From a virus (lineage: Duplodnaviria > Caudoviricetes), in the IMG/VR virus record IMGVR_UViG_3300042885_001472: 64,000 bases of DNA. One strand, given 5' to 3'. Shown here one piece after another: positions 40,598 to 54,909 of the stretch; the stretch's first letter is position 1; the number at the start of each line of letters is the position of its first letter. Under the pieces are notes generated by a model. That model was not told where the DNA came from. It ran no database searches and worked only from the letters and a program-made list of their open reading frames with translations. The position numbers and the translations under genes are program-made.

Positions 40598-40620
40598 AAT
40601 ATTACAAAAAAATAAATAAA

Positions 40621-40848
40621 ATGGGAGAAATTTATACAAACATCGTTTATCAAAAACCAGTTCCAATTAGTGAATTTAAACCAACATCACCAATGATTAA
40701 TCCAATTACTTATGAATTAATAAACCCAGAATCATGGGAAGATGGTTTATATTTATCACCAAATTTAATGGATGAAAATCTAAAGATAAATATGGTATTT
40801 GAAGTAAAGGATAAAAAAGTGGTTAGAGTATATAAATCGAAGGTATGA
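40621..40848 (+). CDS. Hypothetical protein, possibly the relic of a cassette
   Basis: 75-aa ORF; stop is followed at once by the cassette flank GTAGTATTGGTTATAAC. Confidence 0.55.
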   Translation: MGEIYTNIVYQKPVPISEFKPTSPMINPITYELINPESWEDGLYLSPNLMDENLKINMVFEVKDKKVVRVYKSKV

Positions 40849-41065
40849 TGTAGTATTGGTTATAACGGTTGGATATTGGCTTTCTAACCATTTATATAAT
40901 GCCAAAATGAGCTAATATTTTGTTAGTATTTCGTTTACTTTTACTTTTTTAGGGGTCCATTATAAAATTAAACTATCTGATTTATAGCACTTTACAAAAA
41001 TAATGTAAATATATGAGATGTATATAATATATATAATGTATATTTACACTATAAAACTAAACAAT

Positions 41066-41347
41066 ATGAGAAATTTAATATCAGTAAGCAATCAAACAGT
41101 AAGAGTAGGTAACTTTATTATTAGCAATGTTGCAGAATATGTTTTAGATAATGGAAATAACCAAATAGAATTTAAACTTGTTTCTGCTACTGACAATTTA
41201 GATATGGTTGTCTTAAAAAGTTTAGGTATTAAAAAGGTAGAGTTTAATGCAATGAATAATAACCACATTGATAAATTTATTGAAGGGTCAAAACAAGTTT
41301 ATTTCACAAATGATTTTTTTAATTCATTAATAAAATTAACAGTATAG
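41066..41347 (+). CDS. Cassette hypothetical protein
   Basis: Probable ATG 41066 within ORF 41018..41347. Confidence 0.55.
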   Translation: MRNLISVSNQTVRVGNFIISNVAEYVLDNGNNQIEFKLVSATDNLDMVVLKSLGIKKVEFNAMNNNHIDKFIEGSKQVYFTNDFFNSLIKLTV

Positions 41348-41577
41348 TAAAATGAAAAAACTTACTAAAATACTTCAAAGTTTAAATCGCTTTGCAATCG
41401 GTTTGATTTGTAACAATGTCTACCGAAACGCTAATAACAAAGATAACTGCTTAATGGACTTTTGCAAAGAAAAATAATAAATGTCTACCGTTTTTGCAAA
41501 AGCTTATACGTCTGCCAAACTGTTGCCAAAGCGTGTGTTATGTGACGTTTTTTTATTAATAAACTAAAATTAAAATT

Positions 41578-41775
41578 ATGGAAATAGGAAAATTAAAAGT
41601 AGTATTCATTCTGTCTAATGGTCAAACTTTGACAATTAAATGTAAAAAGTTTAGTATGACAAAACTTAGCGGAACAAAAGGTGAAAGGGAAATTTCGGTT
41701 GAAGGAGCTGATAGAATATGGTCTGTTGACTTAGATGAGGTAGTGGGAATAACTGCTAGATGGTGTCTACTTTAA
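41578..41775 (+). CDS. Cassette hypothetical protein
   Basis: 65 aa; unit 41537-41788 flanked by GTTATGTGAC / GACACATAAC. Confidence 0.65.
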   Translation: MEIGKLKVVFILSNGQTLTIKCKKFSMTKLSGTKGEREISVEGADRIWSVDLDEVVGITARWCLL

Positions 41776-41942
41776 AATGACACATAACGGTTGCAAATAT
41801 AAAACGTTTATTAAACTAAACTTAAATTGAAAAACAGAATATAAATATAAACACAACAATAAATTTGGAACACTGGAATAAATGTTTTATATTTGTTGTT
41901 ATAAGTATGTATTATTTTTTAAACACTAAATTAAATAGAATT

Positions 41943-42149
41943 ATGAAAGACATTAAAGAAATGGAAGTAGAAGAACTTCGCAAAGAAATGGACGAACTTT
42001 GGGGATATTTATATATGACAAGAGAAGTCGGTGCTTATGATAAATTTGAGTGGAACGGATTAGATTATTGGGATGCTGATAGAAGACATCACAAAGTATC
42101 ACAAGAAGTTCTTCTACGGAGTATATTAGAACTCACTGATAAAAAATAA
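41943..42149 (+). CDS. Cassette hypothetical protein
   Basis: ATG 41943; unit 41898-42162. Confidence 0.65.
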   Translation: MKDIKEMEVEELRKEMDELWGYLYMTREVGAYDKFEWNGLDYWDADRRHHKVSQEVLLRSILELTDKK

Positions 42150-42223
42150 TATTACCTATAACGATTTGCGTATATACGCAGTGCTAACGAAAATTTAATT
42201 TGAAATACAAAATTTAATAATAT

Positions 42224-42415
42224 ATGAAAACTTTAATTGGAAAAATGAAAGCATTGCGTATATACGCTGTTATAAGCAGTGCTTTTAAACACGATTGTTG
42301 GATGAACAAGAAAATGGTATCAGCTTCTTATTTCAAAGATGGTGATAGCAGTGTAATATTTTCAACTGGTAAAAAATATTGTTGTGAAAAATGTGGGAAT
42401 CAGTGGTCTGAATAG
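42224..42415 (+). CDS. Cassette protein with Cys motifs; start codon lies inside the hairpin loop
   Basis: HDC...CCEKC; reads through the right arm as ALRIYAVISS; unit 42269-42428. Confidence 0.6.
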   Translation: MKTLIGKMKALRIYAVISSAFKHDCWMNKKMVSASYFKDGDSSVIFSTGKKYCCEKCGNQWSE

Positions 42416-42519
42416 CATTGCTTATAACGTTTTGCAGCTAATAAATCGGCTTGCTGTTTATTAGGTGCGGTTATAGGTATGTGTTTTTTGCGTAGGAATT
42501 AACAACTAAAATTATAAAT

Positions 42520-42687
42520 ATGAAAATTAAAATTAAAACCGAAAAAGTAGAATTTGAATTTGATGATGAGAAAATTTTTCAAATGGGAAATTATTTTGAA
42601 AAGGAAAATAAAGCTGTTTTAGAATTTCTAAAGGAGTGTATTCAAAAGGTAAGTGAGGAATCGATTAAAATTAATAAACGTGAGTAG
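42520..42687 (+). CDS. Cassette hypothetical protein (55 aa, below the ORF-track cut-off)
   Basis: MKIKIKTEKVEFEFDDEKIF...KINKRE*; unit 42470-42715. Confidence 0.6.
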   Translation: MKIKIKTEKVEFEFDDEKIFQMGNYFEKENKAVLEFLKECIQKVSEESIKINKRE

Positions 42688-42772
42688 TGCGGTGGGTAAA
42701 AACATTACCTATAACGGTTTGCAGCTTTGAGCCGTTTAAACGAATATTAATTTAAAACAATAATTAACGAAT

Positions 42773-43000
42773 ATGAAAAATGAAACAATAAAAAATGGCT
42801 TAAAGGTGCTGTTAGTAGCTGTTATTTTTTGCGGTTGTGATACTACTGTAAGGAAAAATTTAACAGGTGAAAAATATTTTGGAAGTGATATAGAAGTGCT
42901 TGTAGTCGATAGTTGTGAGTATCTGATTTTTGCTTCTGGTACGAGAAGTGTAACGCATAAGGGGAACTGTAAATATTGTGCAGAACGTAGCAAAAAATAA
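42773..43000 (+). CDS. Cassette-encoded putative small lipoprotein
   Basis: MKNETIKNGLKVLLVAVIFCG-C signal/lipobox; C-terminal THKGNCKYC; paralogue of 52583..52846. Confidence 0.65.
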   Translation: MKNETIKNGLKVLLVAVIFCGCDTTVRKNLTGEKYFGSDIEVLVVDSCEYLIFASGTRSVTHKGNCKYCAERSKK

Positions 43001-43116
43001 TTGCTACTAACGGTTGAGGCTATGAGTAGTTGCCTTGTAAATACTGCTCAATTAACCACAAACGCTGATAGGCAATTGCTTATAGCCTTTGTTATAGGTT
43101 GTAAAATTTATGGATT

Positions 43117-43359
43117 ATGAAAGTAACAGATTTTATTGGAGTGAAAGCTAAATACGATGAAGATGGACAATTTATTTGGGGAATTGAAAAGGATGGTGGA
43201 CATCAAAAACTTGCTGATTTAAGAGGTTGGGGAGCAATTCAAAACTTATTCATCAATAAGGATAAAACTATTGATTTAGATGCAGCAGCAAGTTTTCAAG
43301 ATGAATTTGGCAGATGGATTGTCGAGGCTATAAACGAGAAATTGGAATGGGAACGGTAG
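43117..43359 (+). CDS. Cassette hypothetical protein
   Basis: 80 aa; unit 43091-43379. Confidence 0.7.
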   Translation: MKVTDFIGVKAKYDEDGQFIWGIEKDGGHQKLADLRGWGAIQNLFINKDKTIDLDAAASFQDEFGRWIVEAINEKLEWER

Positions 43360-43500
43360 TAAATTTTATTACCTATAACGGTTGGCGATTGGTGTCTGTT
43401 ATTTTGCCTTGCAGACATTTCAATTTTACGATAAACTTAATAGGCAAAATTATAGCACCAATTGCTTGTTAGCAGTATGTGTTTTTAAACTTTTTTAGCG

Positions 43501-43695
43501 ATGGCAGGATTAAATTATGGAAACTCTTTTACAAAAAAAAGAGGTATGTATAAAAATAAAAAGGTTGGAGTTAGTTACGCTGAGTTGGCGGATAAATGGA
43601 TTGTAAGAATATTAAAAAATGGAACAGTAACAACAATTGCACAATTTAAAACAAAGGAGGAAACGGATGAATATTACGGTGCGTTGGCAGTTTAA
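43501..43695 (+). CDS. Cassette hypothetical protein, possibly AP2-like DNA-binding
   Basis: VGVSYAELADKWIVRI...IAQFKTKEE loosely resembles AP2 domains; unit 43468-43711. Confidence 0.45.
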   Translation: MAGLNYGNSFTKKRGMYKNKKVGVSYAELADKWIVRILKNGTVTTIAQFKTKEETDEYYGALAV

Positions 43696-43762
43696 AAACA
43701 TTACTGCTAACGTTTTGCAGCTAAACTTAGTTTATTAACCGAATTTAAAACACAATGTAATT

Positions 43763-44011
43763 ATGGAATACAAATCAGAAGATTTTATATCATTTATAGA
43801 GAATAACAGACGAGATAAGGTAAGCCCTAACGGACTTGAATTAATTGCTAAACGTTTTAGGGAACTGGAATGCGAGGTTAATAAATTGAGTTTAGCTGCT
43901 GTTAGCGGTTCGTTGAGTAGTAAATGTTTTACGTTAGCGAATGAATTGGCAATAGCTGGTTATGGAAACGAAGCCGTTATGTTACACTCAATTAGTAATT
44001 CAATACAATGA
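43763..44011 (+). CDS. Cassette protein whose N-terminal half is encoded in the loop of a 195-nt hairpin
   Basis: Reads through the right arm as VNKLSLAAVSGS; unit 43901-44019. Confidence 0.6.
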   Translation: MEYKSEDFISFIENNRRDKVSPNGLELIAKRFRELECEVNKLSLAAVSGSLSSKCFTLANELAIAGYGNEAVMLHSISNSIQ

Positions 44012-44108
44012 CCGCTAACGTTATCGAGCCTTGCACAGCTAAGGTGTCGCCCGGGTTGGGTTATAGGTAGGTTGTAACGAATGTTTAATTAATACACAAT
44101 TTAAAAAT

Positions 44109-44369
44109 ATGGAAAATACAGATTTAATAGGAGAAGATTTTTATCAAATAGAAAAACAAAAAGGTAATATTTTAGATGTAAATAGTGCTATGGCTTTTAA
44201 AATAGCTTGGGATTATGCAATTGGTTATCATAAAAATAAGGTTAAAATAATAGAATTAGAGCTATTAAAATACAAAGAATTAGAAAAAAAAGTTCGTGAA
44301 ATTTCTGATAATATTAATACTAAGCAAAGTATATCTTATTGCGTTATGGAACATTTTAAAATTATATAA
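44109..44369 (+). CDS. Cassette hypothetical protein
   Basis: 86 aa; unit 44060-44408. Confidence 0.6.
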   Translation: MENTDLIGEDFYQIEKQKGNILDVNSAMAFKIAWDYAIGYHKNKVKIIELELLKYKELEKKVREISDNINTKQSISYCVMEHFKII

Positions 44370-44520
44370 TCAAAAATGTTTCTAAATGATACACAACTTA
44401 CCTATAACGTTTTCGAGCTAAGCCCTCGTTTTAATGGGGCTTAGGTTGTGTTACCTGCTGGCGGCAGAGAAATGTTGCTATAAGACTTTAATATAAAAAA
44501 TAACTTAAAATAAATATAAA

Positions 44521-44991
44521 ATGGAAAGAAGCGATTTTAGAATCATAGAAAGACTGAACTCATTTGGTAAATCTGAATTTATTATCCAACATAAAAAACA
44601 TAAAATGGTTGGAGGTTTCTTCGGACTATTTGGTGGTACTATGCAAGATGTATGGGAAGACTTCTACCTAGAAGTATATGAATGCTATGTAAACGACCAA
44701 CACAGATTTCATAAATATCTATTTATACAAAATTGGAAAGAAAATACAGAAGAAGAAATTGAGTTCTATATAGAACACTTCAATAGAAAACCAATTGAGT
44801 ATAGAGGATATAAATTAATTCCGATTGTTTCATACTTTGGTCAAAAATGCCTAACCTATTATGACCCTAAATCATTTTGTAGAAGAGGTAATTACAACTA
44901 TGGTTATAGAATATATAGTAGTGAATATGAATCCAAGAAGTATATAGATGATAAATTAGATAAAGGCAGAATATTAAATATTTATGAATAA
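44521..44991 (+). CDS. Cassette hypothetical protein (last cassette of array 1)
   Basis: 156 aa; unit 44450-45084. Confidence 0.7.
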   Translation: MERSDFRIIERLNSFGKSEFIIQHKKHKMVGGFFGLFGGTMQDVWEDFYLEVYECYVNDQHRFHKYLFIQNWKENTEEEIEFYIEHFNRKPIEYRGYKLIPIVSYFGQKCLTYYDPKSFCRRGNYNYGYRIYSSEYESKKYIDDKLDKGRILNIYE

Positions 44992-45081
44992 TATGAAGAT
45001 TCCAATAGGTGAAAATGAAATAGTTTAGATTTTTTTAACGGCACATACAAAACTATTTCAAAGTAGCTACCGCTTGCAGGT

Positions 45082-45170
45082 AACTATTATATATAAACAA
45101 GTATAGTCTAAACCCTTTAATAACAATACTTTGAACCAAAAAATTATAAAGATTTGTAAATAAAAGTTTA
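45082..45170. repeat. attI-like array-terminal site, copy 1
   Basis: AAC-TATTATATATAAACAAGTATAGTCTAAACCCTTTAA...GATTTGT..AAAAGTTTA; 83/89 identical to 54821-54909 by manual alignment; no hairpin. Confidence 0.75.
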
Positions 45171-45251
45171 ATTATCTTTTAAAGATGAAAATCACTAAAT
45201 AAAATTAGGAAAATATAAATTAATATGTTATCTTTGTAAAAAATATATGTT

Positions 45252-45710
45252 ATGGAAAGTTTAGATGTTAAAAATTTTTGTTTAGTTATATTAGGTAAAC
45301 AAAATGACGTTAAAAAAGAGTTAGAATTTATTTCTGAAGGACCAATAAATTATGTTGAGGGAAAATATTTATTCATCGCAACTTTTAAATCAACATTGTT
45401 CGCGAAGGATATTGAAATCTTTTTAAGTAGTTCCAATATAAATTATATCTTATCTGAAATGGTTTCTTCATTATTTTCGGCTGATCTTGGTGAGTTTAAT
45501 TCAGCACTATTTAATTTAAATCAAAATACTAATATTTTTGAGAAAAAAATTGTTGTAGATTATACTGGAACTGAAGAAGCTGTAATTATTGATGAAGAAG
45601 ATGAAAATTTAACTTTAGATGAATTATTGGATTTAGTGTCTGAAATAGGATTGGATAAATTAACAAGTAAACAAAAAGAACTTTTAAATAAATTTTCACT
45701 AAATAAATAA
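45252..45710 (+). CDS. Hypothetical protein
   Basis: 152 aa; TATCTTTG promoter element at 45229-45236. Confidence 0.7.
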   Translation: MESLDVKNFCLVILGKQNDVKKELEFISEGPINYVEGKYLFIATFKSTLFAKDIEIFLSSSNINYILSEMVSSLFSADLGEFNSALFNLNQNTNIFEKKIVVDYTGTEEAVIIDEEDENLTLDELLDLVSEIGLDKLTSKQKELLNKFSLNK

Positions 45711-45711
45711 T

Positions 45712-46521
45712 ATGGTAAATAAAAAATTCATTAATGGTCAAGAAGATTCAATTTCAAATTACCTTAAGGATGTAAAAAAGTGTGGTGTTATTAACACTGA
45801 CACTGAAGTTGAATTAGCTAAAAGAATACAAGAAGGTGATCAAGTTGCCGCTGATGAATTGGCTAAAGCTAATCTTAGATTTGTTATATCAATCGCCAAA
45901 GAATATCAAAATCAGGGATTACCATTAGCGGATTTAATTTCAGAAGGTAATTACGGATTGATTATAGCGGCTCAACGATTTGACTATACAAAAGGGTTTA
46001 AATTTATTTCTTACGCTGTATGGTGGATAAAACAATCTATTATGCAGTCACTAAACGAACATTCCAGAACTGTTCGGTTACCAACTAATGTTATCAATAA
46101 ACTTTCTAAAATTAAGAAAGAGATAGATGCGTTTGAGCAAAAGTTTGAAAGAAAACCAGTATTAGGTGATGAAATTGAAATGGTATTCCACCCAACAGTG
46201 ATATCGTTAAGTACAACAATAAATGATGATGGTGATGAGTTAATTGAAGTTATTGAAGATCCTAACATTAATAGTCCGGACAATGATCCATATAATGAGT
46301 ACGACATTAAAGAACGTATGAATAAAATTCTATCAATTCTTTCTGAAAGGGAGAAAAATGTGATTGAGTTATATTATGGTATAAATGGATCACCTTTAAC
46401 ATTGGAAGAAATTGGTGAGGAATATGATTTAACTAAAGAAAGAATTCGTCAAATTAAAGAAAAATGTATCAGAAAACTTAGAAATAATGCTGATGTCTTA
46501 CAACAACAATTATTTGGATAA
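45712..46521 (+). CDS. rpoD: RNA polymerase sigma70-family factor, Bacteroidota primary-sigma-like
   Basis: ANLRFVISIAKEYQNQG, DLISEGNYGL, GFKFISYAVWWIKQSI, RTVRLP, region 4 LTLEEIGEEYDLTKERIRQIKEK; no region 1.1. Confidence 0.92.
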   Translation: MVNKKFINGQEDSISNYLKDVKKCGVINTDTEVELAKRIQEGDQVAADELAKANLRFVISIAKEYQNQGLPLADLISEGNYGLIIAAQRFDYTKGFKFISYAVWWIKQSIMQSLNEHSRTVRLPTNVINKLSKIKKEIDAFEQKFERKPVLGDEIEMVFHPTVISLSTTINDDGDELIEVIEDPNINSPDNDPYNEYDIKERMNKILSILSEREKNVIELYYGINGSPLTLEEIGEEYDLTKERIRQIKEKCIRKLRNNADVLQQQLFG

Positions 46522-46666
46522 ATATGAATAAATTTAATGAGTGGTGGAACGAAGTTTTATTCGTTATTAATATTAGTATCTTTGAAATATCTGTTGATAA
46601 TGGAATGATTTGTTCATTGATATTGATAATTTTTGGATTAATGAGTTTATAAATAAAACAAATAAT

Positions 46667-46846
46667 ATGAAAAAAGACATTGAAATTAGTGTAACTGAAA
46701 CAAAATCAGTTGAACATGTTAGTTATGAAGAGTTGTATAACTCATTAAGAGATAGAATTAGATTAATTCAACAACTTAATGATAAATACGAAAATGATGA
46801 AGATTTTGGTAGAAATTTAAGAAAATTATTGAATTTAGGTGGGTAA
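46667..46846 (+). CDS. Hypothetical protein
   Basis: Probable ATG 46667; ends GGTGGGTAA just before the first hairpin of array 2. Confidence 0.55.
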   Translation: MKKDIEISVTETKSVEHVSYEELYNSLRDRIRLIQQLNDKYENDEDFGRNLRKLLNLGG

Positions 46847-46933
46847 AAATATTGATACTAACGGTATCGGACTTGGCGATGTTGCCGAAAACAAATGTTA
46901 ATTAGAATTACTAAACTTTAAATTATAGATAAA

Positions 46934-47230
46934 ATGTCAAACGAAGAAATGAACGGCAATATTGTCAAACCCGTGTTACCTGTTGTACTTATTTGCGATT
47001 GCAGTAGCCGTGAACACCAAATTATCATTGAACACAACAATGAAGATAACTTAACCTACTGCCATATTCATTTGGTAAAACACGGCTTTTGGCGAAGATT
47101 GAAAGTTGGTTTAAAATACATATTTGGTTATAAATGTAGATACGGTCAATGGGATGAATTTATATTAAAACCCGAACACGCTAACCAGCTTCGTGAATTG
47201 TCGAATTTTCTTTCACAGCATAGCAGGTAA
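46934..47230 (+). CDS. Cassette hypothetical protein starting in a hairpin loop
   Basis: MSNEEMNGNIVKPVLPVV...CDC...EH; stop TAA is part of the AAC core; unit 46975-47231. Confidence 0.65.
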   Translation: MSNEEMNGNIVKPVLPVVLICDCSSREHQIIIEHNNEDNLTYCHIHLVKHGFWRRLKVGLKYIFGYKCRYGQWDEFILKPEHANQLRELSNFLSQHSR

Positions 47231-47351
47231 CGGTTGAGTAGTAAAAAATTCTAAAACTAAAAATTATGTATACAAAAGATTTATATGGATTTAATCCAGT
47301 TACAATTGGCCAACACAGGTTGGTTATATTTATTTATTTATAACTAATAAC

Positions 47352-47651
47352 ATGAAAACTAAACAAGAAATAGAAAAGTTAGCTGAGCAATATTTACAAA
47401 AAAATAAACATAATTTTGATACTTGGAAAGAGATAGAACATGTTAAAATTAGTTATATAGATGCTTACACTCAATGCCAAGAAGATGTAGATTGGGAATT
47501 ATTAGTGAAGTTGATTAAAAGGTATACAGAAGAAGATTTACTTCACGCTTTTAGAGAAGGAGTTTTATTACCTAACTCACAAATTGGTATAATGGAAGAT
47601 ATATTTAAACAAGTAGTTCAATCACTAAACAAACAAGACAATGAAAACTAA
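47352..47651 (+). CDS. MKTK(E/Q)EIE..LAE family protein, copy 1
   Basis: Shared blocks MKTKxEIExLAE, YTQCQED, YTEED, SLNKxD. Confidence 0.7.
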   Translation: MKTKQEIEKLAEQYLQKNKHNFDTWKEIEHVKISYIDAYTQCQEDVDWELLVKLIKRYTEEDLLHAFREGVLLPNSQIGIMEDIFKQVVQSLNKQDNEN

Positions 47652-47907
47652 AGAAGAAATAGAACAGTTAGCTGAAGAATTTGGGGATAAATATGCTGAT
47701 AACGGAAATCATAAATATGGTTTTATCAAAGGCTACACTCAATGCCAAGAAGATATGGCTGATAAGAAATCCACAGAGGAAGATATTAGAAAGGCTATTG
47801 AAGTTGGTGTAAATGCAGAAGCCGGTGATTATCCAAAAGGTTTTACACACAAACTTGGAATTAGCTTAGAAGATTATTTTATTAACTCACTAAACAAAAA
47901 AGACTAA
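47641..47907 (+). CDS. MKTK(E/Q)EIE..LAE family protein, copy 2
   Basis: Same conserved blocks. Confidence 0.7.
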   Translation: MKTKEEIEQLAEEFGDKYADNGNHKYGFIKGYTQCQEDMADKKSTEEDIRKAIEVGVNAEAGDYPKGFTHKLGISLEDYFINSLNKKD

Positions 47908-47908
47908 T

Positions 47909-48196
47909 ATGAAAAGCAAAGAAGAAATAGAACAGTTAGCTGAAAATCAATATCCAATTGAAGTAGGAGGTTCGATGTGGATGCCTAATACTAATGATAT
48001 TAAAAAGGCTAATGAACAAGAAGGTTACATAAAAGGTTACATTCAATGCCAACAAGATATGGCTGATAAGAAATATACAAAGGCACAAATTATATGGGTA
48101 ATACAAGAAGCATACGGACACGGTAGAGATAGTGAAGACACTATTGAAGAAAGTATTGATTATATTTTTAACTCACTAAACAAACAAGACTTATGA
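47909..48196 (+). CDS. MKTK(E/Q)EIE..LAE family protein, copy 3
   Basis: Same conserved blocks. Confidence 0.7.
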   Translation: MKSKEEIEQLAENQYPIEVGGSMWMPNTNDIKKANEQEGYIKGYIQCQQDMADKKYTKAQIIWVIQEAYGHGRDSEDTIEESIDYIFNSLNKQDL

Positions 48197-48298
48197 TACA
48201 AAAGATTTATCTAAATGTAATTAGTTTTATATTTTTATTAATTGCAAAATTGATTATTAAATGTTTAGATTTTATCAACTCATTAAACAAACAAAACA

Positions 48299-49183
48299 AT
48301 GACCAGTAAAGAAGTAATGGATGCAGCATTTAATTTAGCTAATAATAAACAAAAGACAATGAAAAACATACACATATTGCCAACGGATAAACCAAGTATA
48401 TTACATTTATATACTGATGAAAATGGCACAAGACTTGAAACTTTTGAAGTAGAATATTCACACACAAGAGATACTCAACACATCTACATCACTTCTGATG
48501 AAGAAATTAAAGATGGAGATTGGTATTTAGACACCTTTAATAATCAAAGAATTAAAGCTAATGAATTTTCAGACCATAAACATTACGGAAATGCTTGTAA
48601 AAAAATCATCCTAACAACAGACCAAGACTTAATTACAGATGGTGTTCAAGCTATTGATGATAAGTTTTTAGAATGGTTTGTAAATAACAGTAGTTGTGAA
48701 AGTGTTGAGGTTGTAAAAGACGGTTTAAAAGTTAAAGAGGGAGGTATTCAAGAACTAATGGAAGATGAGTATTATCAAAAATTCCCAGAAGAGCTTCCAA
48801 ACTGCGTTTTTATTGATAAATATGAAATCATCATTCCACAAGAAGAACCTAAACAAGAAACACTTGAAGAAGTTCAATTAGCTATTTTATTTCATAATAC
48901 TTATGAGAATTTAGCACCAAATTTTGGTTATGAAACAAGAGCAGATACAAAATCATTTGAAACTACTACTCCAAATGGAATGTTAATGATTGCTGTTTGT
49001 AAAGAAATAATTAAATGGCAACAAGAAAGAAGTTATAGTGAGGAAGAAGTAAAAGAAATAATTAAACTTTCTTGTGAAAAAGGTATGCTGATTCAAAGAA
49101 CTATAAATGATAAAGTTAAAATTCCATATACAAGAATAAAAGACTTTACGATTAAAATGTTGGAACAATTTAAAAAGAAATAG
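48299..49183 (+). CDS. Hypothetical phage protein
   Basis: 294 aa; KNIHILPTDKPS, HIYITSDEEIKDGDW, CKKIILTTDQDL; C-terminal YSEEEV resembles the YTEED block of its neighbours. Confidence 0.7.
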   Translation: MTSKEVMDAAFNLANNKQKTMKNIHILPTDKPSILHLYTDENGTRLETFEVEYSHTRDTQHIYITSDEEIKDGDWYLDTFNNQRIKANEFSDHKHYGNACKKIILTTDQDLITDGVQAIDDKFLEWFVNNSSCESVEVVKDGLKVKEGGIQELMEDEYYQKFPEELPNCVFIDKYEIIIPQEEPKQETLEEVQLAILFHNTYENLAPNFGYETRADTKSFETTTPNGMLMIAVCKEIIKWQQERSYSEEEVKEIIKLSCEKGMLIQRTINDKVKIPYTRIKDFTIKMLEQFKKK

Positions 49184-49184
49184 T

Positions 49185-49511
49185 ATGAAAACTAAAGAAG
49201 AAATAGAACAGTTAGCTGAAAGCCAATATGGAACTGAAATAGGCAGTATAAGAGGGAGTAATCCTTATGACTTAGAAGGAAATAGAAAAAATGGCTTAAA
49301 GGTGCTGTTAGTGGATGATAAAATTAAGTATGATGATTTAAAAGACGGAGATATTTATGAGCAGGAACAAAGCAAAGGCGAATGGGTAAAAGGAAAAATT
49401 TGCCACCATTGGAGAGGTAGTTTAATGATAGAATTAATTGAAGGAAGATTGAATGGGAAGCAATGGTATTTGTTTCCTGATTTAAAGAGATTAAGGCGTG
49501 TGGCAGCTTAA
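49185..49511 (+). CDS. Chimeric ORF: MKTKEE-family N-terminus fused through an att right arm to a cassette gene
   Basis: First 36 nt identical to 47641; contains AAAAATGGCTTAAAGGTGCTGTTAGT, identical to 42792-42816; unit 49307-49528. Confidence 0.65.
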   Translation: MKTKEEIEQLAESQYGTEIGSIRGSNPYDLEGNRKNGLKVLLVDDKIKYDDLKDGDIYEQEQSKGEWVKGKICHHWRGSLMIELIEGRLNGKQWYLFPDLKRLRRVAA

Positions 49512-49774
49512 TTTTATTTGCCACTAACGGTTGAGTGTATGAGAAGGTTTGCTTTGTTAAACTTTCAAATTACCACCGACCTTTGTAGCTAACTTTCTTA
49601 TACACCTTGTTATAACCAGTACGGATAAATTAGCACTGAACTTGATACGAAGAACGAATAAAAACTTTTTAAAAATGTGCGGTGGAAAACTTGATTAATT
49701 TAAAAATAAGTAGTATATCTGTAATATCATAATAATAATAAACTAATAAACTAATAAACTAAAAAATTAAACAA

Positions 49775-50368
49775 ATGGCAAAATTTATTGAAACAATTTA
49801 TCCAACTATTGAAGATAGAGTAAGTAGATGGGAAACAATGGGAATGTTACATATAGTTAAATCTGATGATTCTAAAAAATTGGTGGCGATGGCACTTGAT
49901 GCAACTGCAATATATCTTACAGAATTTAATTTTAAAAATTTTGATAACGATACAAAAACGGTTTTAATACCAGTAATTGTAAGAATTTTCAACGAAACAA
50001 ACAAAGATTTCACATTAGAAACATTAACTAAATCAGTTAGAAGAATAATTGAAGATTTTGTGGAAAAATATGAAGAAGCAAAACCTAAGTTTAACCCATT
50101 AACTTCCGAAAGAGATGATGATGCTGAATTTATTGCGTTATATTGCGAAAACTATTCTTTTGATGAAAACAAAATTAAAATTAAATTTAAAATTACATTT
50201 TGGAAAGATATTCCAGAAAGAACATTTATAATTGATGATACCAACTTCTTTCCAAAATATTTTATGGGGTTGGATGGTATTTTATATGAAAATTATGGAA
50301 CAGAGGAAAAACCAATGTGGGAAAATGTTTTTGATAGTGACTATGAGATTGAAATTGTTAATCTTTAA
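49775..50368 (+). CDS. Cassette protein resembling the N-terminal region of T4-like major capsid proteins
   Basis: RWETMGMLH...MALDATAIYL...IPVIVRIF parallels gp23-type KW..GLL.GL...A.LLEN.A..L...P.VRR.F (recalled pattern, not searched). Confidence 0.4.
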   Translation: MAKFIETIYPTIEDRVSRWETMGMLHIVKSDDSKKLVAMALDATAIYLTEFNFKNFDNDTKTVLIPVIVRIFNETNKDFTLETLTKSVRRIIEDFVEKYEEAKPKFNPLTSERDDDAEFIALYCENYSFDENKIKIKFKITFWKDIPERTFIIDDTNFFPKYFMGLDGILYENYGTEEKPMWENVFDSDYEIEIVNL

Positions 50369-50570
50369 GGTGGGAAATTTTTAAAAAGTTTTTCTCACAG
50401 AACTTAAATATGGAACACGAATGTAGTATTGGTTATAACGGTTGGGTGTATGAGAAGGTTTGCTTAGATGAACTTTCAAATTATACACAACTGTTATAAC
50501 CAGTACGGTTAATTTAAGATAAAACTTGATTAAATGAATAATAATTAGTATATTTGTAAAAAAATAAATT

Positions 50571-51044
50571 ATGGAAAACATATTAAAAAGGCTTGAATAT
50601 AAAATATTTAAGAAATACGAAAAAAAGATTGAAGATGTAAAAGATTATGTATGGGATTATAAAAAAATCAATAATGACATTACTCAACTTGAACACAATG
50701 AAACATTGAGTCGTTTTGTGTTATATTATATGAAAGAATTTAACTTAGATGTAATAATTACATCTGGAGAAATTTGCACTATATTTCAAAACTTTAGTAA
50801 TTTTTATATTATTGGTGAAAACGATGTATATAATTATAAAAGATATAAATCTGACATTAGTAATGATTTTGAACCATTTTACCTTATCAAAGAAGAAGAT
50901 AATAATATTGGGGTTGTAATTAAAACCAATATTAGAATTGAACCGAATAATATTATACTAACAAACACTGAAGGTTCTAATTATAAAATAATTGATGTTT
51001 GGAATTTACCAAGTGTTAAACTAACTGAATGTTTTAAAAAATAA
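50571..51044 (+). CDS. Cassette hypothetical protein
   Basis: 157 aa; TATATTTG promoter at 50549; two-gene unit 50493-51405. Confidence 0.7.
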   Translation: MENILKRLEYKIFKKYEKKIEDVKDYVWDYKKINNDITQLEHNETLSRFVLYYMKEFNLDVIITSGEICTIFQNFSNFYIIGENDVYNYKRYKSDISNDFEPFYLIKEEDNNIGVVIKTNIRIEPNNIILTNTEGSNYKIIDVWNLPSVKLTECFKK

Positions 51045-51048
51045 AGAT

Positions 51049-51387
51049 ATGGAAAAAGAAAATTTAAAAACTGGGGTGTACCTCATAAAAGCGGATAGTA
51101 AAGATTATTCCTTAACAAAAGAGAAAGAAGAGAAAATAAATTCATTAGAAATTAATGAAGAACATAAAGATTTTTTCAAAAATCTTTTTAGAGAAGAACC
51201 AACACCAAAAGGTTATGATTTATTAGTTGAATTGGTTGGTCAAAATCCTTTTTTAAAAATCAAAAGTGTTAAAAATAATGATACTGGTGAAAATATTACT
51301 GAACAATTTACTGATAAAAATATTGATGATGTTAATTCTTTATGGTTATTTACTAAACATTTAGAATGGGTTCTTCAGAACATATAA
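51049..51387 (+). CDS. Cassette hypothetical protein
   Basis: 112 aa; second gene of unit 50493-51405. Confidence 0.7.
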   Translation: MEKENLKTGVYLIKADSKDYSLTKEKEEKINSLEINEEHKDFFKNLFREEPTPKGYDLLVELVGQNPFLKIKSVKNNDTGENITEQFTDKNIDDVNSLWLFTKHLEWVLQNI

Positions 51388-51532
51388 CGTAGTATTGGTT
51401 ATAACGTTTTGCAGCTTTAAGAAGTGGCTGCCTAACGGAAAGTTCAAAGTTCGCACAATGTTTATGGCAGCTTTTGCCAAACCGCTGTTATGTGCTGGGC
51501 GGATTATCAGTACTAATTTTAATTTAAAAACG

Positions 51533-51745
51533 ATGTACAAAGCATTTCAAAACAAAAAGTATTATTTGGCGTTTAACCGATTTCCTAAAACTGCCAAAAA
51601 AGTAGGGGGTGTGCATAAAGCATATTCAACAGGATTTAGAAAATGGAATTCTGATGATATGATTACCTACGCAATAGTTGTCGGCACATTCAGGATTATG
51701 TTTGGAATTAAAACGCCAAATTATACTTGTGATGAAGGATGTTAG
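51533..51745 (+). CDS. Cassette hypothetical protein
   Basis: ATG 51533 (the longer track ORF runs through the hairpin); unit 51487-51758. Confidence 0.6.
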   Translation: MYKAFQNKKYYLAFNRFPKTAKKVGGVHKAYSTGFRKWNSDDMITYAIVVGTFRIMFGIKTPNYTCDEGC

Positions 51746-51815
51746 CCTTGCACATAACGCTTTGCAGCTTTGAGCCGTTTACCAAATATTAATAACAAAA
51801 AAATAAATAACGAAT

Positions 51816-51995
51816 ATGCCAAAAACAATACATGCAAAAAGAGAAGATTTAATTTGCGGAAAAATAGACTTAGCACAAGATATGGCTATTAAATTAAAAA
51901 GTATCGAATTACTTGAATTATTAGATAGTATCAGATATGATGCTGTAAGAATGGAACAAAAACTTATTAGCAGAAAACAGGAATCAAAAATATAA
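51816..51995 (+). CDS. Cassette hypothetical protein (59 aa) starting at a hairpin-loop ATG
   Basis: MPKTIHAKREDLICGKIDL...QESKI*; same AACGAATATG context as 42773 and 53389. Confidence 0.55.
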   Translation: MPKTIHAKREDLICGKIDLAQDMAIKLKSIELLELLDSIRYDAVRMEQKLISRKQESKI

Positions 51996-52176
51996 ATAAC
52001 AGAACCACCGCTTGCAGGTAACGGTTTGCAGATTGCCGAAGGTGGCGAAATCGAAGCACTAAACTTGATATAAAAACGAATGTTAAACCGAAGCACAACA
52101 GTTGATATTAGCACTAAACCGCCACTTTTGGCAATGTGCTGTTATAAGCCGTTTTTCTTCACAAATCAAAAAATAA

Positions 52177-52516
52177 ATGGATTTACGAATTGAATACATT
52201 TTCAGAGAAGAAATGAAAAGAGATACATCTTTTCAAGAAAAAAAAAACTGGGTTAAGTTTGCTTTTCGGAACAAACAAATACTCTAAACAAGAAATGAGA
52301 GAAACTTGGGATAGAGGTATTAAACTTGGAATAGAAATAGGATTGCGAAAAGCAAGTTTAGAAGGACAAAGGATTGAACTTAATCACAATACACCCGAAG
52401 GAAAGCATAAGGAATTTCTTGAAAAGTTTTATCAATTGGCTGATGAATATAAATGTGCTGTCCAATTTCATCTCGAATTTGGAATGGTAGTAGTTGCTCG
52501 TCAAAATGGCTTATAA
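52177..52516 (+). pseudogene. Cassette gene frameshifted at an A10 tract (or slippage-controlled)
   Basis: ATG 52177 joins ORF 52259..52516 in frame if A10 at 52238-52247 were A9; unit 52141-52517. Confidence 0.55.
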
Positions 52517-52582
52517 CGGTTTGCAGATAAGCGAAGGCAAAGATTTAGAAACGAAAATTTTAACTTAAAAACAAATATAATT

Positions 52583-52846
52583 ATGAAAACGAGAACATCA
52601 TTAAACCACAGAACCTTTGCTTTTGCTTATGTGCTGTTAGTAGCTGTTATTTTTTGCGGCTGTGAGGATATGAATAGAGCCGAAGAACGCTCAAAAGTAT
52701 TTAAAACAGCAGTAGAAGTTAATGGCTACCAAATATCAATAATAGAATTTGATAGTTGTCAATACTTAATATCAGGCGTTGGCTACTCACAAATGATGAC
52801 ACATAAAGGGAACTGTAAATTTTGTACAGAACGTAGCAAAAAATAA
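52583..52846 (+). CDS. Cassette-encoded putative small lipoprotein
   Basis: ...FAYVLLVAVIFCG-C; C-terminal THKGNCKFC; unit 52636-52857. Confidence 0.65.
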   Translation: MKTRTSLNHRTFAFAYVLLVAVIFCGCEDMNRAEERSKVFKTAVEVNGYQISIIEFDSCQYLISGVGYSQMMTHKGNCKFCTERSKK

Positions 52847-52976
52847 TTGCTACTAACGTTTTGCAGCTAATAGACGGGCTGGAAACTTATATAATTCCGC
52901 CTGTTTATTAGGTGCTGTTATAGGTAGTGCCAAATATAAATACTAAAAGAATATTAATAATTAAAAAATAGAAATA

Positions 52977-53318
52977 ATGAACTTAAAAGAATTTGTAAAA
53001 TTTACATTTGAAAAATACGAAAAAAACGGGTATTGTTTTAGACCTAGAATAGTTTGTAATGATGGGTTTTCAATGAGTGTACAAGGTAGTAACGCATTAT
53101 ATTGTAGACCGAGAATTACACAAGATTGGTATGATAAAATGGAAATAGGTTATCCATCAGCAGAAGAAATTGATATAATAGAATTTGCTGAGGATATTAC
53201 AAAACCAACTGATACCGTTTATGGTTATGTGCCATGTGAACTTATTGAAAAAGTTATTTTAAAACACGGTGGTATTAACTCGGTTGAAACATTTAAAGCT
53301 TCTAAGGATATTAAATAG
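52977..53318 (+). CDS. Cassette conserved phage hypothetical protein
   Basis: CNDGFSMSVQGS..YC.PR...EIGYPS...PTDTVYGYVP...KHGG; unit 52917-53332. Confidence 0.7.
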   Translation: MNLKEFVKFTFEKYEKNGYCFRPRIVCNDGFSMSVQGSNALYCRPRITQDWYDKMEIGYPSAEEIDIIEFAEDITKPTDTVYGYVPCELIEKVILKHGGINSVETFKASKDIK

Positions 53319-53388
53319 GCATTACCTATAACGGTTTGCAGCTTTGAGCCGTTTAAACGAATATTAATTTAAAACTAAAACAACGAAT

Positions 53389-53484
53389 ATGAATAACAAT
53401 GAAATAGAAAATGGCGCAAAGGTGATGTTGGTACCAGTAGCCAAATTAAAATTTAAAAACAATAACTTAAAAATACAATTATGA
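53389..53484 (+). CDS. Hairpin-encoded leader peptide (31 aa) whose TGA overlaps the next ATG
   Basis: MNNNEIENGAKVMLVPVAKLKFKNNNLKIQL*; ATGA overlap at 53481-53484. Confidence 0.45.
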   Translation: MNNNEIENGAKVMLVPVAKLKFKNNNLKIQL

Positions 53485-53741
53485 AAAACAACAAAGAAAA
53501 ATCGTACCAATACGCATCGATGATACAAGAGGCAATAGCTGAATTGATTTCAGAACACGAATTATTAGCTGATTTTGATGATGAAAATAACGCAACTGCA
53601 TTTTTACACGCATTAGCTAATGTAGTGCCATGTAATATTTATAAGAAATTAACTAATGATAATACTGATATTTTAGGTTTTAATCATATTGCTAATAGAT
53701 TAGTATATCAATTTACAAAGCAGGACGAAGCCGAAGCGTAA
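53481..53741 (+). CDS. Cassette hypothetical protein
   Basis: 86 aa; unit 53427-53765. Confidence 0.7.
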   Translation: MKNNKEKSYQYASMIQEAIAELISEHELLADFDDENNATAFLHALANVVPCNIYKKLTNDNTDILGFNHIANRLVYQFTKQDEAEA

Positions 53742-53885
53742 ACGCCAAGGGCTATTGGTACTAACGGTCGGCAATATGAAACGGTTGCCCTTGTAAGACG
53801 TTTCAAAATATGATGCAGTTTTCTGGCAACTGTTTTATATTGCTTGTTATAGCCAGTTAATTTTAATCAATAAAAACGAAAAAAG

Positions 53886-54086
53886 ATGGAAGCACCTAAA
53901 TTAAATGAAGTATGGCATGTTCAATATGGAGAAGCCATTGGTAAAGAATACAATATCCTTGTAAGAATAGATGAGGATAAAAAAGAGTTAAATCCACCGA
54001 ATTGGAGAAGAAACAAGTATAAATGTGAGCATAAAAGTAAGGAACTGATGGTAGGTGGAAATATGTTCATTGAACGGTTTTCTTAA
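53886..54086 (+). CDS. Cassette hypothetical protein
   Basis: 66 aa; unit 53846-54097. Confidence 0.65.
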   Translation: MEAPKLNEVWHVQYGEAIGKEYNILVRIDEDKKELNPPNWRRNKYKCEHKSKELMVGGNMFIERFS

Positions 54087-54297
54087 TTGGCTATAACGGT
54101 TGGGTGTATGAGAAGGTTTGCTTAGATGAACTTTCAAATTATGCACAAATGCTGATAGCAAACTTTCTTATACACCTTGTTATGTGTAGGTGTGGTTAAT
54201 TAAGGTAGAATGTTCAATTGGATAACTGAACAAAAATTTTAAAAGAAAAAGAAAGGTGGATTTTTATTATTTTAATATTTATATATAAAAGAAAACA

Positions 54298-54747
54298 ATG
54301 AAAGATTTGAAACAATTTATTAAAACAACCATACGAGAGTTTTTGAATGAGAGTTCAATTGGGAATATTGAATATAAAATAACATATTCACCACCAGAAA
54401 ATATTCATGTTGTAGCAAAGATTGATGGTGTTATAATTGGAACATTATCTATAATAGATGATAGTCATTTCTTATCAACAGAAGATGAACCAACATTTAC
54501 AATTATGTCAGTATTTGTAGATAAAGAATATAGACAAAAAGGTATTTATATAAATTTAATCAAATATTTTTTACTAAATAATAAATATGGTGTCAAATCG
54601 TTATATTCTTCAAAAGAACCAGAATTTGATACAGAAAAAAGAACATCGGTTGCTGATGGTTTTTGGAAAAATGTTTATACAAATCAAAATAAATATGGTG
54701 TAAATGTTGATAAAATAGATAATGATTATGAAATTTCTTTAAAATAA
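54298..54747 (+). CDS. GNAT-family acetyltransferase-like protein (last cassette of array 2)
   Basis: FTIMSVFVDKEYRQKGIYINLI acetyl-CoA-binding motif A; ADGFWK; leader MKDLKQFIKTTIREFLNES. Confidence 0.7.
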   Translation: MKDLKQFIKTTIREFLNESSIGNIEYKITYSPPENIHVVAKIDGVIIGTLSIIDDSHFLSTEDEPTFTIMSVFVDKEYRQKGIYINLIKYFLLNNKYGVKSLYSSKEPEFDTEKRTSVADGFWKNVYTNQNKYGVNVDKIDNDYEISLK

Positions 54748-54820
54748 GTGCGGTGGTATTTTTCTTTTAAAATTTCCAACCGAAATATTGATTAGAAGGA
54801 TGAACGGAACACTTACACAT

Positions 54821-54909
54821 AACTATTATATATAAACAAGTATGGTCTAAACCCTTTAAAATTAATACTTTGAACCAAAAAATTATAAAGATTTGTTAAG
54901 AAAAGTTTA
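54821..54909. repeat. attI-like array-terminal site, copy 2
   Basis: Near-identical to 45082-45170 and begins at the AAC core of the last cassette. Confidence 0.75.

Follow-up and report, generated by a model that had tools for sequence, protein, structure and literature searches.

The analysed window, the whole 64-kb stretch of DNA, belongs to a large Flavobacterium phage from fresh water, a myovirus of the T4-like type that encodes gp32, gp46/47, and a DnaB-like helicase, and very probably contains mobile gene cassette arrays of a phage-borne, integron-like site-specific recombination system. Permuted cassette orders, covariation of the hairpins, breakpoints at TAAC, and an attI-like site with a recombinase support the view of the earlier note that this is a site-specific platform for accessory genes.

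We found 26 sites, all on the + strand within positions 40863-54837: 20 complete TAACG...GTTA hairpins (one with GTTG), which are 48-197 nt long and lie within 40863-54182, four half-sites, and two non-hairpin end sites. The hairpin count rests on a constrained-fold scan, a core list, and a covariance model. The model, whose construction the earlier note had recommended, yielded 15 matches at E<0.12, every one on the + strand and inside the array region, and no match better than E 0.49 in the rest of the 64 kb. The palindromes described earlier (about 24, of 46-195 nt) are thus present, and the arrays, previously counted as two, form three segments. The hairpin given as an example, at 43008-43094, has exactly the reported sequence, and the alternation of hairpins with small + strand ORFs is borne out by the ORF list, every ORF having the same direction as the hairpins. 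The features are as follows.

40863-45098, +, array A: ten complete hairpins, one right half-site, cassettes, attI-like end
40863-40927, +, hairpin 1, degenerate (covariance model, 31 bits); its head, GTAGTATTGGTTA, is found again at 50423 and 51389
41531-41540, +, right half-site (..GCGTGTGTTA); tail against hairpin 2 head, 8/10
41785-41901, +, hairpin 2 (fold, -19.6 kcal/mol)
42159-42272, +, hairpin 3, loop with the start codon of ORF 42224-42415 (fold scan, covariance model)
42425-42473, +, hairpin 4, short class (fold scan, covariance model)
42712-42814, +, hairpin 5, 3' arm encoding the N-terminus of lipoprotein-like ORF 42773-43000
43008-43094, +, hairpin 6, the example above (covariance model, 75.7 bits)
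43376-43471, +, hairpin 7 (fold scan, covariance model)
43708-43904, +, hairpin 8, 197 nt, loop with the start of ORF 43763-44011
44016-44063, +, hairpin 9, short class (fold scan)
44405-44453, +, hairpin 10, short class (fold scan, covariance model)
45081-45170, +, attI-like end site A: head of the last cassette, then TAAC/TATTATATATAAAC
45131-45163, +, remnant of a recombinase gene 5' end (LNQKIIKICK, then stop)
46859-47245, +, single-cassette segment: hairpin 11 (46859-46978), ORF 46934-47230, left half-site at 47228
47228-47245, +, left half-site of this segment (TAACGGTTGAGTAG)
49293-54837, +, array B: right half-site, nine complete hairpins, one left half-site, attI-like end
49293-49310, +, right half-site (GGCTTAAAGGTGCTGTTA) inside ORF 49185-49511, an in-frame fusion into a paralog of the MKTKEEIEQLAE family
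49525-49612, +, hairpin 12 (covariance model, 74.4 bits)
50436-50496, +, hairpin 13 (fold scan, covariance model)
51402-51490, +, hairpin 14 (covariance model, 42.1 bits)
51755-51790, +, left half-site (TAACGCTTTGCAGCTTTGAGCC..) without a 3' arm
52019-52144, +, hairpin 15, 126-nt class (fold, -31.5 kcal/mol)
52514-52639, +, hairpin 16, 126-nt class (fold scan), 3' arm encoding the N-terminus of a second lipoprotein-like copy, 52583-52846
52854-52920, +, hairpin 17 (fold scan, covariance model)
53329-53430, +, hairpin 18, 3' core mutated to GTTG (covariance model)
53762-53849, +, hairpin 19 (covariance model, 72.2 bits)
54094-54182, +, hairpin 20 (covariance model, 85.9 bits)
54820-54909, +, attI-like end site B: TAAC/TATTATATATAAAC and downstream sequence common with site A
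54870-54899, +, remnant of a recombinase gene 5' end (LNQKIIKIC, then stop)

From 5' to 3', a hairpin is comprised of the TAAC core, a 3-5 nt bulge in the 5' arm, a covarying stem of ~18 bp, a loop of ~10 to 160 nt, and the GTTA core, with a conserved G.T pair next after the TAAC core. The lengths fall into classes of about 49, 61-78, 85-94, 117-131, and 187-207 nt. As the earlier note had it, the bodies vary around fixed cores; only TAACG and GTTA are invariant, and the palindromes do covary. Across 38 family members, pairing holds for 88.8% of cells compared to 66.2% in shuffles, and the covariation score is 0.546 vs 0.163 in shuffles, a value reached by none of 500 shuffles (slid controls yield ~0.11). 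Longer hairpins fold 7-14 kcal/mol better on the + strand than on the - strand, and G.T pairs are confined to the + strand (column pair 5/96 in 38/38 sequences, 25/82 in 34/38); on the coding strand such pairs would suit RNA folding equally well. Several ORFs have their start codon or N-terminus within a hairpin. No Rfam family matched the hairpins, promoter-like and terminator-like motifs are not enriched, and, with respect to a role solely as terminators, the sequences do not look like intrinsic terminators and lack terminator tails.

The complementarity across the gene, noticed earlier in 21 units, is strong. In 21 consecutive window units, the 10 nt after GTTA and the 10 nt before the next TAAC are on average complementary at 7.76/10 positions, compared to 3.45/10 for the head and tail of the same hairpin and 3.55/10 for non-consecutive pairs; the observed sum was reached in 0 of 100000 permutations. 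For 197 units from many contigs, complementarity spans positions 1-11 with background beyond, and 151 of them have G opposite T at position 7. The head and tail of a hairpin itself are unpaired in the arrays, leaving a basal box of 4-5 bp only. A cassette begins with a single variable hairpin, after which come one to three small ORFs and the 11-nt head. Of ten cassette ORFs tested against Pfam, none had a match, while four of ten compared with PHROGs (six of the ten also Pfam-tested) had weak matches, which in three cases were to families with no enzymatic function assigned.

Cassettes change place between relatives. Near-identical Flavobacterium siphophages have arrays of this kind in which the cassettes are shuffled, their order differing between siphophages of 97-100% identity. 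Between phages lillamy9-2 and lillamy9-7, a single 439-nt unit, a hairpin plus an ORF, has been translocated; TAAC is common to all four junctions, one of which is the terminal non-hairpin site. This precise move with a shared TAAC means that the cassette is a hairpin and then its ORF. The crossover falls inside the four nucleotides of TAAC, at the hairpin's 5' foot, and insertion occurs at other hairpins or at the non-hairpin TAAC/TATTATAT(A/G)TAAAC, at the downstream array end. Contigs with 100% identical recombinase and attI also have permuted cassettes, e.g., c9 c10 c11 c2 c3 vs c11 c10 c15 c16 c9. The earlier note would have given up its reading had related phages kept identical arrays and shown no breakpoints at the core; neither cassette order nor content is kept among relatives, and the rearrangements break exactly at TAAC. 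One cassette, that at 46859-47245, is common to the window myovirus, siphoviruses, and a Flavobacterium MAG, being ~90% identical to the copies in the Flavobacterium siphophages and the MAG, with homology stopping at the cores. In the public-run data, which consist of contigs, contig breaks and alternative joints are seen at hairpins, but paralogous arrays could also explain these. The proposed cassette platform holds with a corrected gene polarity: the hairpin goes with the downstream cassette and new cassettes enter at the array's downstream end, so that the genes are inverted relative to classical integrons.

The attI-like 18-mer is present in 39 viral contigs, with at least two hairpins upstream in 21, none downstream in 37, and a recombinase start 47-98 nt downstream in 17. 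In five contigs, the array is followed closely by a tyrosine recombinase gene of the same orientation. The recombinases next to arrays, encoded in viral metagenome contigs, are Xer-like and 264-289 aa long. They score 150-165 bits against TIGR02249 (cut-off 265), with profile positions 181-238 missing, and have no IntI-specific insertion, the segment used by canonical integrases to read folded attC sites. In addition, a search of 301 host-family genomes yielded no IntI. The integron likeness claimed in the earlier note stands, with the correction that the associated recombinase is Xer-like.

No recombinase gene is encoded in the 64-kb window. Its end sites A (45081) and B (54820) have about 90 nt in common at 89% identity and align with attI-recombinase junctions, the alignment taking in the recombinase gene's first 9-10 codons. 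In particular, the remnant at 45131-45163 aligns with the attI-integrase junctions of contigs L184, L176, and L179, and site B matches the attI region of L184 at 91% identity. As both window arrays keep just these 9-10 codons, they must be served in trans. Similarly, none of four complete array-bearing siphophage genomes has a recombinase gene, so action in trans seems to be required there too.

The enzyme would be the Xer-like tyrosine recombinase, whose gene adjoins the end site and whose activity we infer. Because the + strand folds well, it is the likely single-stranded substrate; this coding strand would match the "bottom" strand of classical attC. Once a cassette is circularised, the 11 nt that follow GTTA would pair with the 11 nt that precede TAAC, adding 11 bp to the stem with the conserved G.T at position 7. 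By analogy with integrons, single-strand exchange would be followed by replicative resolution. The window arrays, having lost the recombinase gene, would be served by a copy elsewhere in the phage or in a co-infecting phage.

PeSLs of T4-like phages are also stem-loop modules before small accessory genes in plastic regions, and shuffling of hyperplastic regions through general recombination has been credited to them (PMC2839356, PMC4122927). By this account, the hairpins here would be terminator/promoter modules, with homologous or microhomology exchange at the motifs and without a dedicated recombinase. The carrier is indeed T4-like (gp32, gp46/47, DnaB-like helicase), a hairpin stands before each small ORF, some cassettes have promoter-like leaders, and neither the window nor the siphophages encode the recombinase. 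However, PeSLs are sequence-conserved and their proposed exchange is homologous (PMC2839356, PMC4122927), while the array hairpins are variable, their bodies being too diverse for such exchange. Moreover, the junctions are exact at the 4-nt core, one of them with a non-hairpin site, and a recombinase gene and a conserved primary site mark the array end in at least 17 contigs. Homologous recombination gives no cause for the 11-nt head/tail complementarity with its fixed G.T, the promoter-like and terminator-like motifs lack enrichment, and the same arrays occur in siphoviruses unrelated to T4. We consider this explanation very unlikely.

Even less probable is transposition of the IS200/IS605 or REP/RAYT type, with an HUH enzyme cutting 3' of a hairpin-guided TAAC and a single-stranded circle reinserting. 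It agrees with the strand asymmetry of the hairpins, their position at one end of the unit, and insertion 3' of TAAC of an element whose own end is also TAAC. Yet there is no HUH or Y1 transposase among the conserved array neighbours, the recurrent enzymes being only DNA methyltransferases (cargo), an HNH endonuclease, a DnaB helicase, and the tyrosine recombinase; it is the latter that adjoins the conserved end site, and the units are stacked head to tail in arrays, not scattered over the genome. Just as improbable are hairpins acting solely in RNA, where they would govern the processing, stability, or translation of a polycistronic transcript, the cassette signature being historical. G.U-compatible pairs on the coding strand, start codons and N-termini within hairpins, and the common direction of ORFs and hairpins would fit, but the precise translocation with a shared TAAC, the permuted orders beside an identical recombinase, a head/tail stem whose formation requires a circle, and the attI-recombinase junction are left unexplained, and Rfam matches and terminator tails are absent. 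Along with site-specific recombination, the hairpins may still have a secondary role in RNA.

Since no IntI is present, the phage arrays are not a canonical integron. Like integrons and CALINs, they are arrays of promoter-poor small genes between sequence-variable, structure-conserved hairpins with ..TAAC / GTTA.. cores. As in integrons, the core flank travels with the neighbouring cassette, a signature of circular intermediates, the crossover is within the AAC/GTT core, one strand is the better folder, and a non-hairpin primary site lies beside a tyrosine recombinase gene directed away from the array. Integrase-less arrays also occur, as in CALINs (attC clusters without integrase). Read on the - strand, the arrays have the canonical order integrase, attI, (gene, attC)n and the G/TT junction. 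Unlike in integrons, the recombinase is Xer-like (264-289 aa) and the ORFs are all inverted: they occupy the folding strand and their transcription runs in the direction of attI and the recombinase, so the Pc-type promoter logic does not apply. In addition, head and tail are complementary over 11 nt, including a fixed G.T, instead of over 4 nt, the spacer is a one-sided bulge of 3-5 nt instead of 1-2 nt, hairpin lengths form discrete classes, and the carriers are virulent phages of Flavobacteriia.

Xer/dif-type systems also act on folded or short sites, as in CTX phage integration and Acinetobacter pdif modules. They share with the arrays an Xer-family tyrosine recombinase, a folded single strand as a possible substrate (CTX phage), and a binding arm of 11 bp, implied here by the head/tail stem and the same as in dif arms. 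By contrast, the phage arrays have long, variable hairpins and no dif-like 28-bp site, and their cassettes are arrayed in one orientation, with a single primary site.

The hairpin family is not wholly unreported, as the earlier note cautioned. According to the available text of Qi et al. (2023, Front Microbiol; PMC9892861), virulent phages carry 2-4 predicted attC flanking genes such as DNA methyltransferases. One of these sites, P12002L_attC1 of Polaribacter phage P12002L, belongs to our family, being identical to positions 30008-30056 of contig L123 (- strand). It was called attC by HattCI only and was the sole site of six not recombined by IntI1 (PMC9892861). For its family, the same portion of that paper mentions no large arrays, dedicated recombinase, attI-like site, inverted polarity, or cassette turnover. 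The arrays described here represent an integron-like gene-swapping system common to unrelated phages, which stocks small accessory genes as cassettes.

Every TAAC-GTTA pair lying 44-230 nt apart in the window was subjected to constrained folding, complemented by a list of cores and a covariance model. Constrained folding was used in place of an ungapped palindrome scan, which misses the hairpins because of their one-sided bulge. Strong hairpins were confined to positions 41785-54182 and to the + strand. The resulting catalogue contains 20 complete hairpins, four half-sites, and two lone TAAC cores, both joined to a common sequence of ∼90 nt. This is far beyond chance and bears out the palindrome array that the earlier note had described. 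The covariance model, also proposed there, retrieved 15 sites at E<0.12 when run over the window, all of them on the + strand within 40863-54182, and nothing comparable in the rest of the 64 kb. The same note had claimed complementarity across the gene in 21 units, that is, between the nucleotides following GTTA (the tail) and those preceding the next TAAC (the head). We confirmed this: tail and next head are reverse complementary at 7.76 of 10 nt, versus 3.45 for the hairpin's own flanks and 3.55 for non-adjacent pairs, and none of 100000 permutations yielded a sum as high as the observed one.

To characterize the hairpin, we aligned 38 members of the 85-93 nt class from the window and many viral contigs. 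TAACG and TGTTA are invariant, and a bulge of 3-5 nt lies 3' of TAACG. The sequence of the two-part stem of ∼18 bp varies freely, while pairing is retained: 88.8% of cells are paired in the given structure, whereas shuffles reach 66.2%. For covariation, the score is 0.546 vs. 0.163; no shuffle out of 500 attained the observed value, and slid controls gave ∼0.11. An absence of covariation, which the earlier note had regarded as an argument against its reading, was thus not observed. The G.T pairs are frequent and one-directional, being present at the column pair 5/96 in all 38 sequences and at 25/82 in 34 of them. On the − strand, A.C mismatches would occupy the same positions, and folding of the + strand is much better. 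Hence, the asymmetry of pairing favors the + strand as the one that folds; it is the coding strand as well. The RYYY/RRRY pattern of attC sites is absent beyond the T/A beside the core, TAAC and GTTA being invariant, and the spacer is a one-sided bulge. Over all arrays, the hairpins fall into length classes of ∼48-52, 61-78, 85-94, 117-131, and 187-207 nt. The 117-131 nt class is by far the commonest, with a peak at 126-127 nt, and the long classes contain an inner stem-loop and an A-rich leader.

The window encodes a gp32-like protein, a DnaB-like helicase, a ribonucleotide reductase, baseplate wedge proteins, a gp46/SbcC-like protein, and a sigma factor, and is part of a large T4-like myovirus. 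Its G+C content is 29%, and almost all genes are on the + strand. One of its cassettes is 84-90% identical to Flavobacterium siphophage DNA, and the metagenomes containing this stretch come from freshwater and lakes sampled from 2016 to 2024. This makes a freshwater Flavobacterium the most likely host. At 55326-56060, ∼400 nt downstream of the end of the second array (49293-54837), the window encodes a free-standing GIY-YIG homing endonuclease with NUMOD domains.

The vB_FspS siphophages of Flavobacterium (Muminvirus, Lillamyvirus, and Hattifnattvirus) have arrays of the same architecture, with 10-14 hairpins each and head/tail matches of 8-9 of 10 nt. Their original description mentions neither hairpins, nor cassettes, nor an integrase (PMC7077304). 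As the closest backbone relative of the window phage that we found is only 47-48% identical to it in gp46, cassette order, suggested by the earlier note as a check, was compared in these siphophages and in IMG/VR contigs instead. Order and content differ; in particular, siphophage genomes that are 97-100% identical carry arrays differing in order and by whole units. Between lillamy9-2 and lillamy9-7, one 439-nt unit comprising a hairpin, its tail, an ORF, and a head has been translocated precisely. In one phage it lies between two hairpins, and in the other at the terminal array site, the latter insertion being seen in lillamy9-7. The empty sites read ..TTTTACA-TAAC-GTTAAAGC.. and ..CTTGCTTA-TAAC-TACAATATT..., and TAAC alone is common to all four junctions, which are thus breakpoints at the AAC/GTT core such as the earlier note had named. 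This means that the crossover falls within the 4-nt core, where the hairpin has its 5' foot, that the cassette consists of a hairpin and the ORF 3' of it, and that a non-hairpin acceptor site exists at the downstream end of the array. Hairpin bodies are constantly linked to the downstream gene (body-gene pairs B10-g11 and B26-g29), which contradicts the classical layout where a hairpin is owned by the upstream ORF. In a cassette common to the window, the siphophages, and one Flavobacterium MAG, homology stops at the cores.

The signature of a circular intermediate, the flank after GTT travelling with the next cassette, was found in the 21 window units, in 197 contig units, and in the translocation. 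In the 197 units, which are non-redundant, the complementarity of tail and head spans positions 1-11 and then drops to background, and at position 7 of this closing stem G stands opposite T in 151 units. A closing stem whose length is defined and whose wobble is fixed is sensible only if the head meets the tail, as in a circular cassette. Eleven nucleotides is the length of a Xer-type binding arm.

Lake contigs from four public metagenome runs (X3, X5, X9, and X11) break at hairpins in the region corresponding to 40500-55300, and some join non-adjacent cassettes: 52920 to ∼44471, exactly at GTTA, and 52001 to 42421. These joints may stem from polymorphism in the population or from cross-talk with an array paralogous to this one; given such a possible array and data at the contig level, we do not regard them as proving rearrangement.

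We found no recombinase encoded in the window, and no PF00589 domain in four complete siphophage genomes. To find conserved neighbors, we clustered the proteins of 57 array-bearing loci. The commonest neighbor family was that of cargo methyltransferases, and the sole recurrent non-cargo enzyme was a tyrosine recombinase of 264-289 aa, encoded directly downstream of the array and on the same strand in five independent contigs. In the viral contig L099, TAAC followed by TATTATATGTAAAC lies between the last cassette and the recombinase start codon, with close variants in other contigs; the recombinase of L099 has 277 aa and is encoded at 3108-3938. Both window arrays end in TAAC followed by TATTATATATAAAC (45081 and 54820). 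The 18-mer of these end sites occurs in 39 viral contigs versus a few expected by chance; at least two hairpins lie upstream of it in 21 contigs, no hairpin lies downstream in 37, and in 17 of the 39 TAAC followed by TATTATATRTAAAC is located 47-98 nt 5' of the recombinase start. Among contigs whose recombinase and site are 100% identical, the cassettes differ and their order is permuted. The window end sites align to the site-recombinase junctions over ∼120 nt, including the first 9-10 recombinase codons, and there the alignment ends, which marks them as orphaned primary sites. An attI-like primary site beside the recombinase gene is present in related contigs; the window has the site twice, with the gene cut to these codons.

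A second type of end site, TAAC followed by G(T/G)GGGGTTAGA.., precedes a more distant recombinase branch in viral contigs (L090:8669-8913, L093:2513-3359 (− strand)), and a third type is found at L020:6240-6324. The primary sites appear to co-vary with recombinase lineages. Two short contigs in Flavobacteriaceae assemblies, L142:1-215 (G191:C23) and L141 (G347:C16), start with a cassette end. In L142 it is followed by ..TGCA-TAAC and TACTATATATAAAAC, while the core of L141 is CAAC; the recombinase after the site is 48-51% identical to the phage enzyme. Both are probably phage or prophage DNA within these assemblies.

The array-adjacent recombinase matches the Pfam family Phage_integrase. The best NCBIfam models are XerA-type (169-206 bits), along with XerD/XerC. 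With TIGR02249, the model of the integron integrase, the array recombinases score 150-165 bits versus the cut-off of 265, in two pieces omitting profile positions 181-238, which is the place of the IntI-specific insertion (I2 helix region). By this score and gap, they fall outside the IntI clade. Among solved structures, the best matches are archaeal XerA and XerD, and the match to IntI4 ends at residue 175. The family comprises 2908 clusters at E<=1e-30, annotated as XerD or integrase only.

Canonical IntI was absent from 301 Flavobacteriaceae genomes, a search that had no positive control, as the control genomes were also without IntI. Homologues of ∼380 aa with 36-45% identity to the phage enzyme are encoded in 256 of 401 Flavobacteriaceae genomes. 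Single hairpins of the array family, mostly of the ∼125-nt class, were found in 20 of 151 genomes of this family, some at 0.7-42 kb from such a ∼380-aa recombinase. Examples are as follows.

Chromosomal hairpins in Flavobacteriaceae
L151:673-798, + strand, hairpin, with ORFs 800-1441 and 1495-2625 on the − strand
G013, G104, G120, and G124, genomes with further examples from the hairpin and recombinase searches

Such chromosomal hairpins may serve integrative elements as attachment sites, or else represent the bacterial source of the system.

Profile searches of the window cassettes hinted at a cargo function in one case only, a weak acetyltransferase-like match at 54298-54747. Start codons and a lipoprotein signal peptide are encoded within hairpin arms. 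A lipoprotein-like cassette (..VIFCGC..) is present in two diverged copies, 42773-43000 and 52583-52846, and in each the start codon and first residues come from the 3' arm of the hairpin upstream, which differs between the two; the N-terminus therefore varies with the hairpin body. A tandem family of paralogs beginning with MKTKEEIEQLAE occupies 47352-49511 (47352, 47641, 47909, and 49185). Its member at 49185 is fused at the half-site 49293-49310 to an unrelated C-terminus ending at hairpin 49525, as if a cassette had inserted into a non-cassette gene or recombined with one. A short G-rich motif, GTGCGGTGG at 42687, 49677, and 54748 or GGTGGGTAAAAA at 42691 and 46838, is located at the 3' ends of cassette ORFs (42687-42691, 46838, and 54748) and, at 49677, in the leader that precedes ORF 49775.

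Other explanations of the arrays are conceivable. In T4-like phages, PeSL-type shuffling (PMC4122927) is proposed to operate by homologous exchange at a conserved early promoter with a terminator stem-loop. It does not fit the arrays, as the hairpin sequences are diverse, scans for terminator and promoter motifs showed no enrichment of either, the junctions are exact at 4 nt, and a recombinase is associated with the arrays. Mobility as a single-strand transposon of the HUH type would require an enzyme for which there is no candidate among the conserved neighbors of the arrays. Action of the hairpins in RNA only, including the role as mere terminators considered by the earlier note, cannot explain the data either: it leaves the translocation and the primary site unaccounted for, the Rfam scan of the hairpins gave no family match, and the terminator signals are, again, not enriched. 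Still, a second role in RNA besides that in DNA is possible, given the start codons and the signal peptide inside the hairpin arms. We conclude that these phage arrays are a genuine cassette platform of the integron-like kind.

Read on the − strand, a phage array resembles an integron, having a recombinase gene pointing away, a primary site, and (gene, hairpin) units joined between the G and the TTA of the core, and its folding + strand corresponds to the bottom strand of a classical attC. By contrast, its recombinase belongs to another clade, the closing stem is 11 nt long, the spacer is a one-sided bulge, and every ORF is inverted and transcribed towards the primary site. The canonical order, an ORF followed by its own attC, with Pc at the attI end, is not found, as the hairpin travels with the downstream ORF. 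Since the co-oriented ORFs have the primary site at their 3' end, they are inverted compared to a canonical integron, and Pc-type promoter logic is inapplicable. Thus, the integron-like platform claimed by the earlier note is upheld as regards cassette boundaries, the primary site, and translocation, but not as regards the IntI clade and the layout with the ORF preceding its attC.

Integrons are regarded as bacterial devices, and standard integron finders rely on IntI and canonical attC models. Our literature search, incomplete in coverage, yielded no account of such arrays, of the recombinase beside them, or of their polarity. One site detected here is identical to P12002L_attC1 of Polaribacter phage P12002L, which hence is a member of the array family. 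It illustrates an annotation blind spot: this sole earlier-detected site of the family came to light through a HattCI prediction only, and in the published assay it was the only one of six phage sites without verified IntI1 recombinants (PMC9892861).

In the mechanism we propose, the array-adjacent Xer-like recombinase would be the enzyme of the cassette system, with the folded single + strand as its substrate. Cassettes would pass through circular intermediates, exchange would be followed by replicative resolution, and the enzyme would be supplied in trans to the window arrays. On balance, we favor the view that these arrays form a separate “inverted integron” lineage, based on a Xer-like recombinase without the IntI insertion and abundant among the phages of aquatic Flavobacteriia, with recombinase clusters numbering in the thousands. 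This lineage would maintain a cassette market among unrelated virulent phages, such as a jumbo myovirus and 37-kb siphoviruses, trading accessory and anti-restriction genes, with many arrays lacking a recombinase and dependent on its supply in trans by another phage or the host.

Such a system places the logic of integrons inside virulent phages, with another recombinase clade and inverted gene polarity. If a Xer-like enzyme handles folded hairpins without the IntI insertion, this bears on the origin of integron integrases from Xer. Cultured phage-host pairs exist, namely Flavobacterium sp. LMO6 and LMO9 with the vB_FspS phages. The cargo of these siphophages (L122, L124-L131) includes one to five DNA methyltransferases per array, HTH regulators, and DUF proteins, and differences in methyltransferase content have been linked by the isolators to plating efficiency on alternative hosts (PMC7077304). 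Therefore, cassette turnover plausibly tunes host range and counter-defence. More generally, the arrays provide a concrete, testable mechanism for the gain, loss, and reordering of small accessory genes in phages, until now put down to vague ‘mosaicism’.
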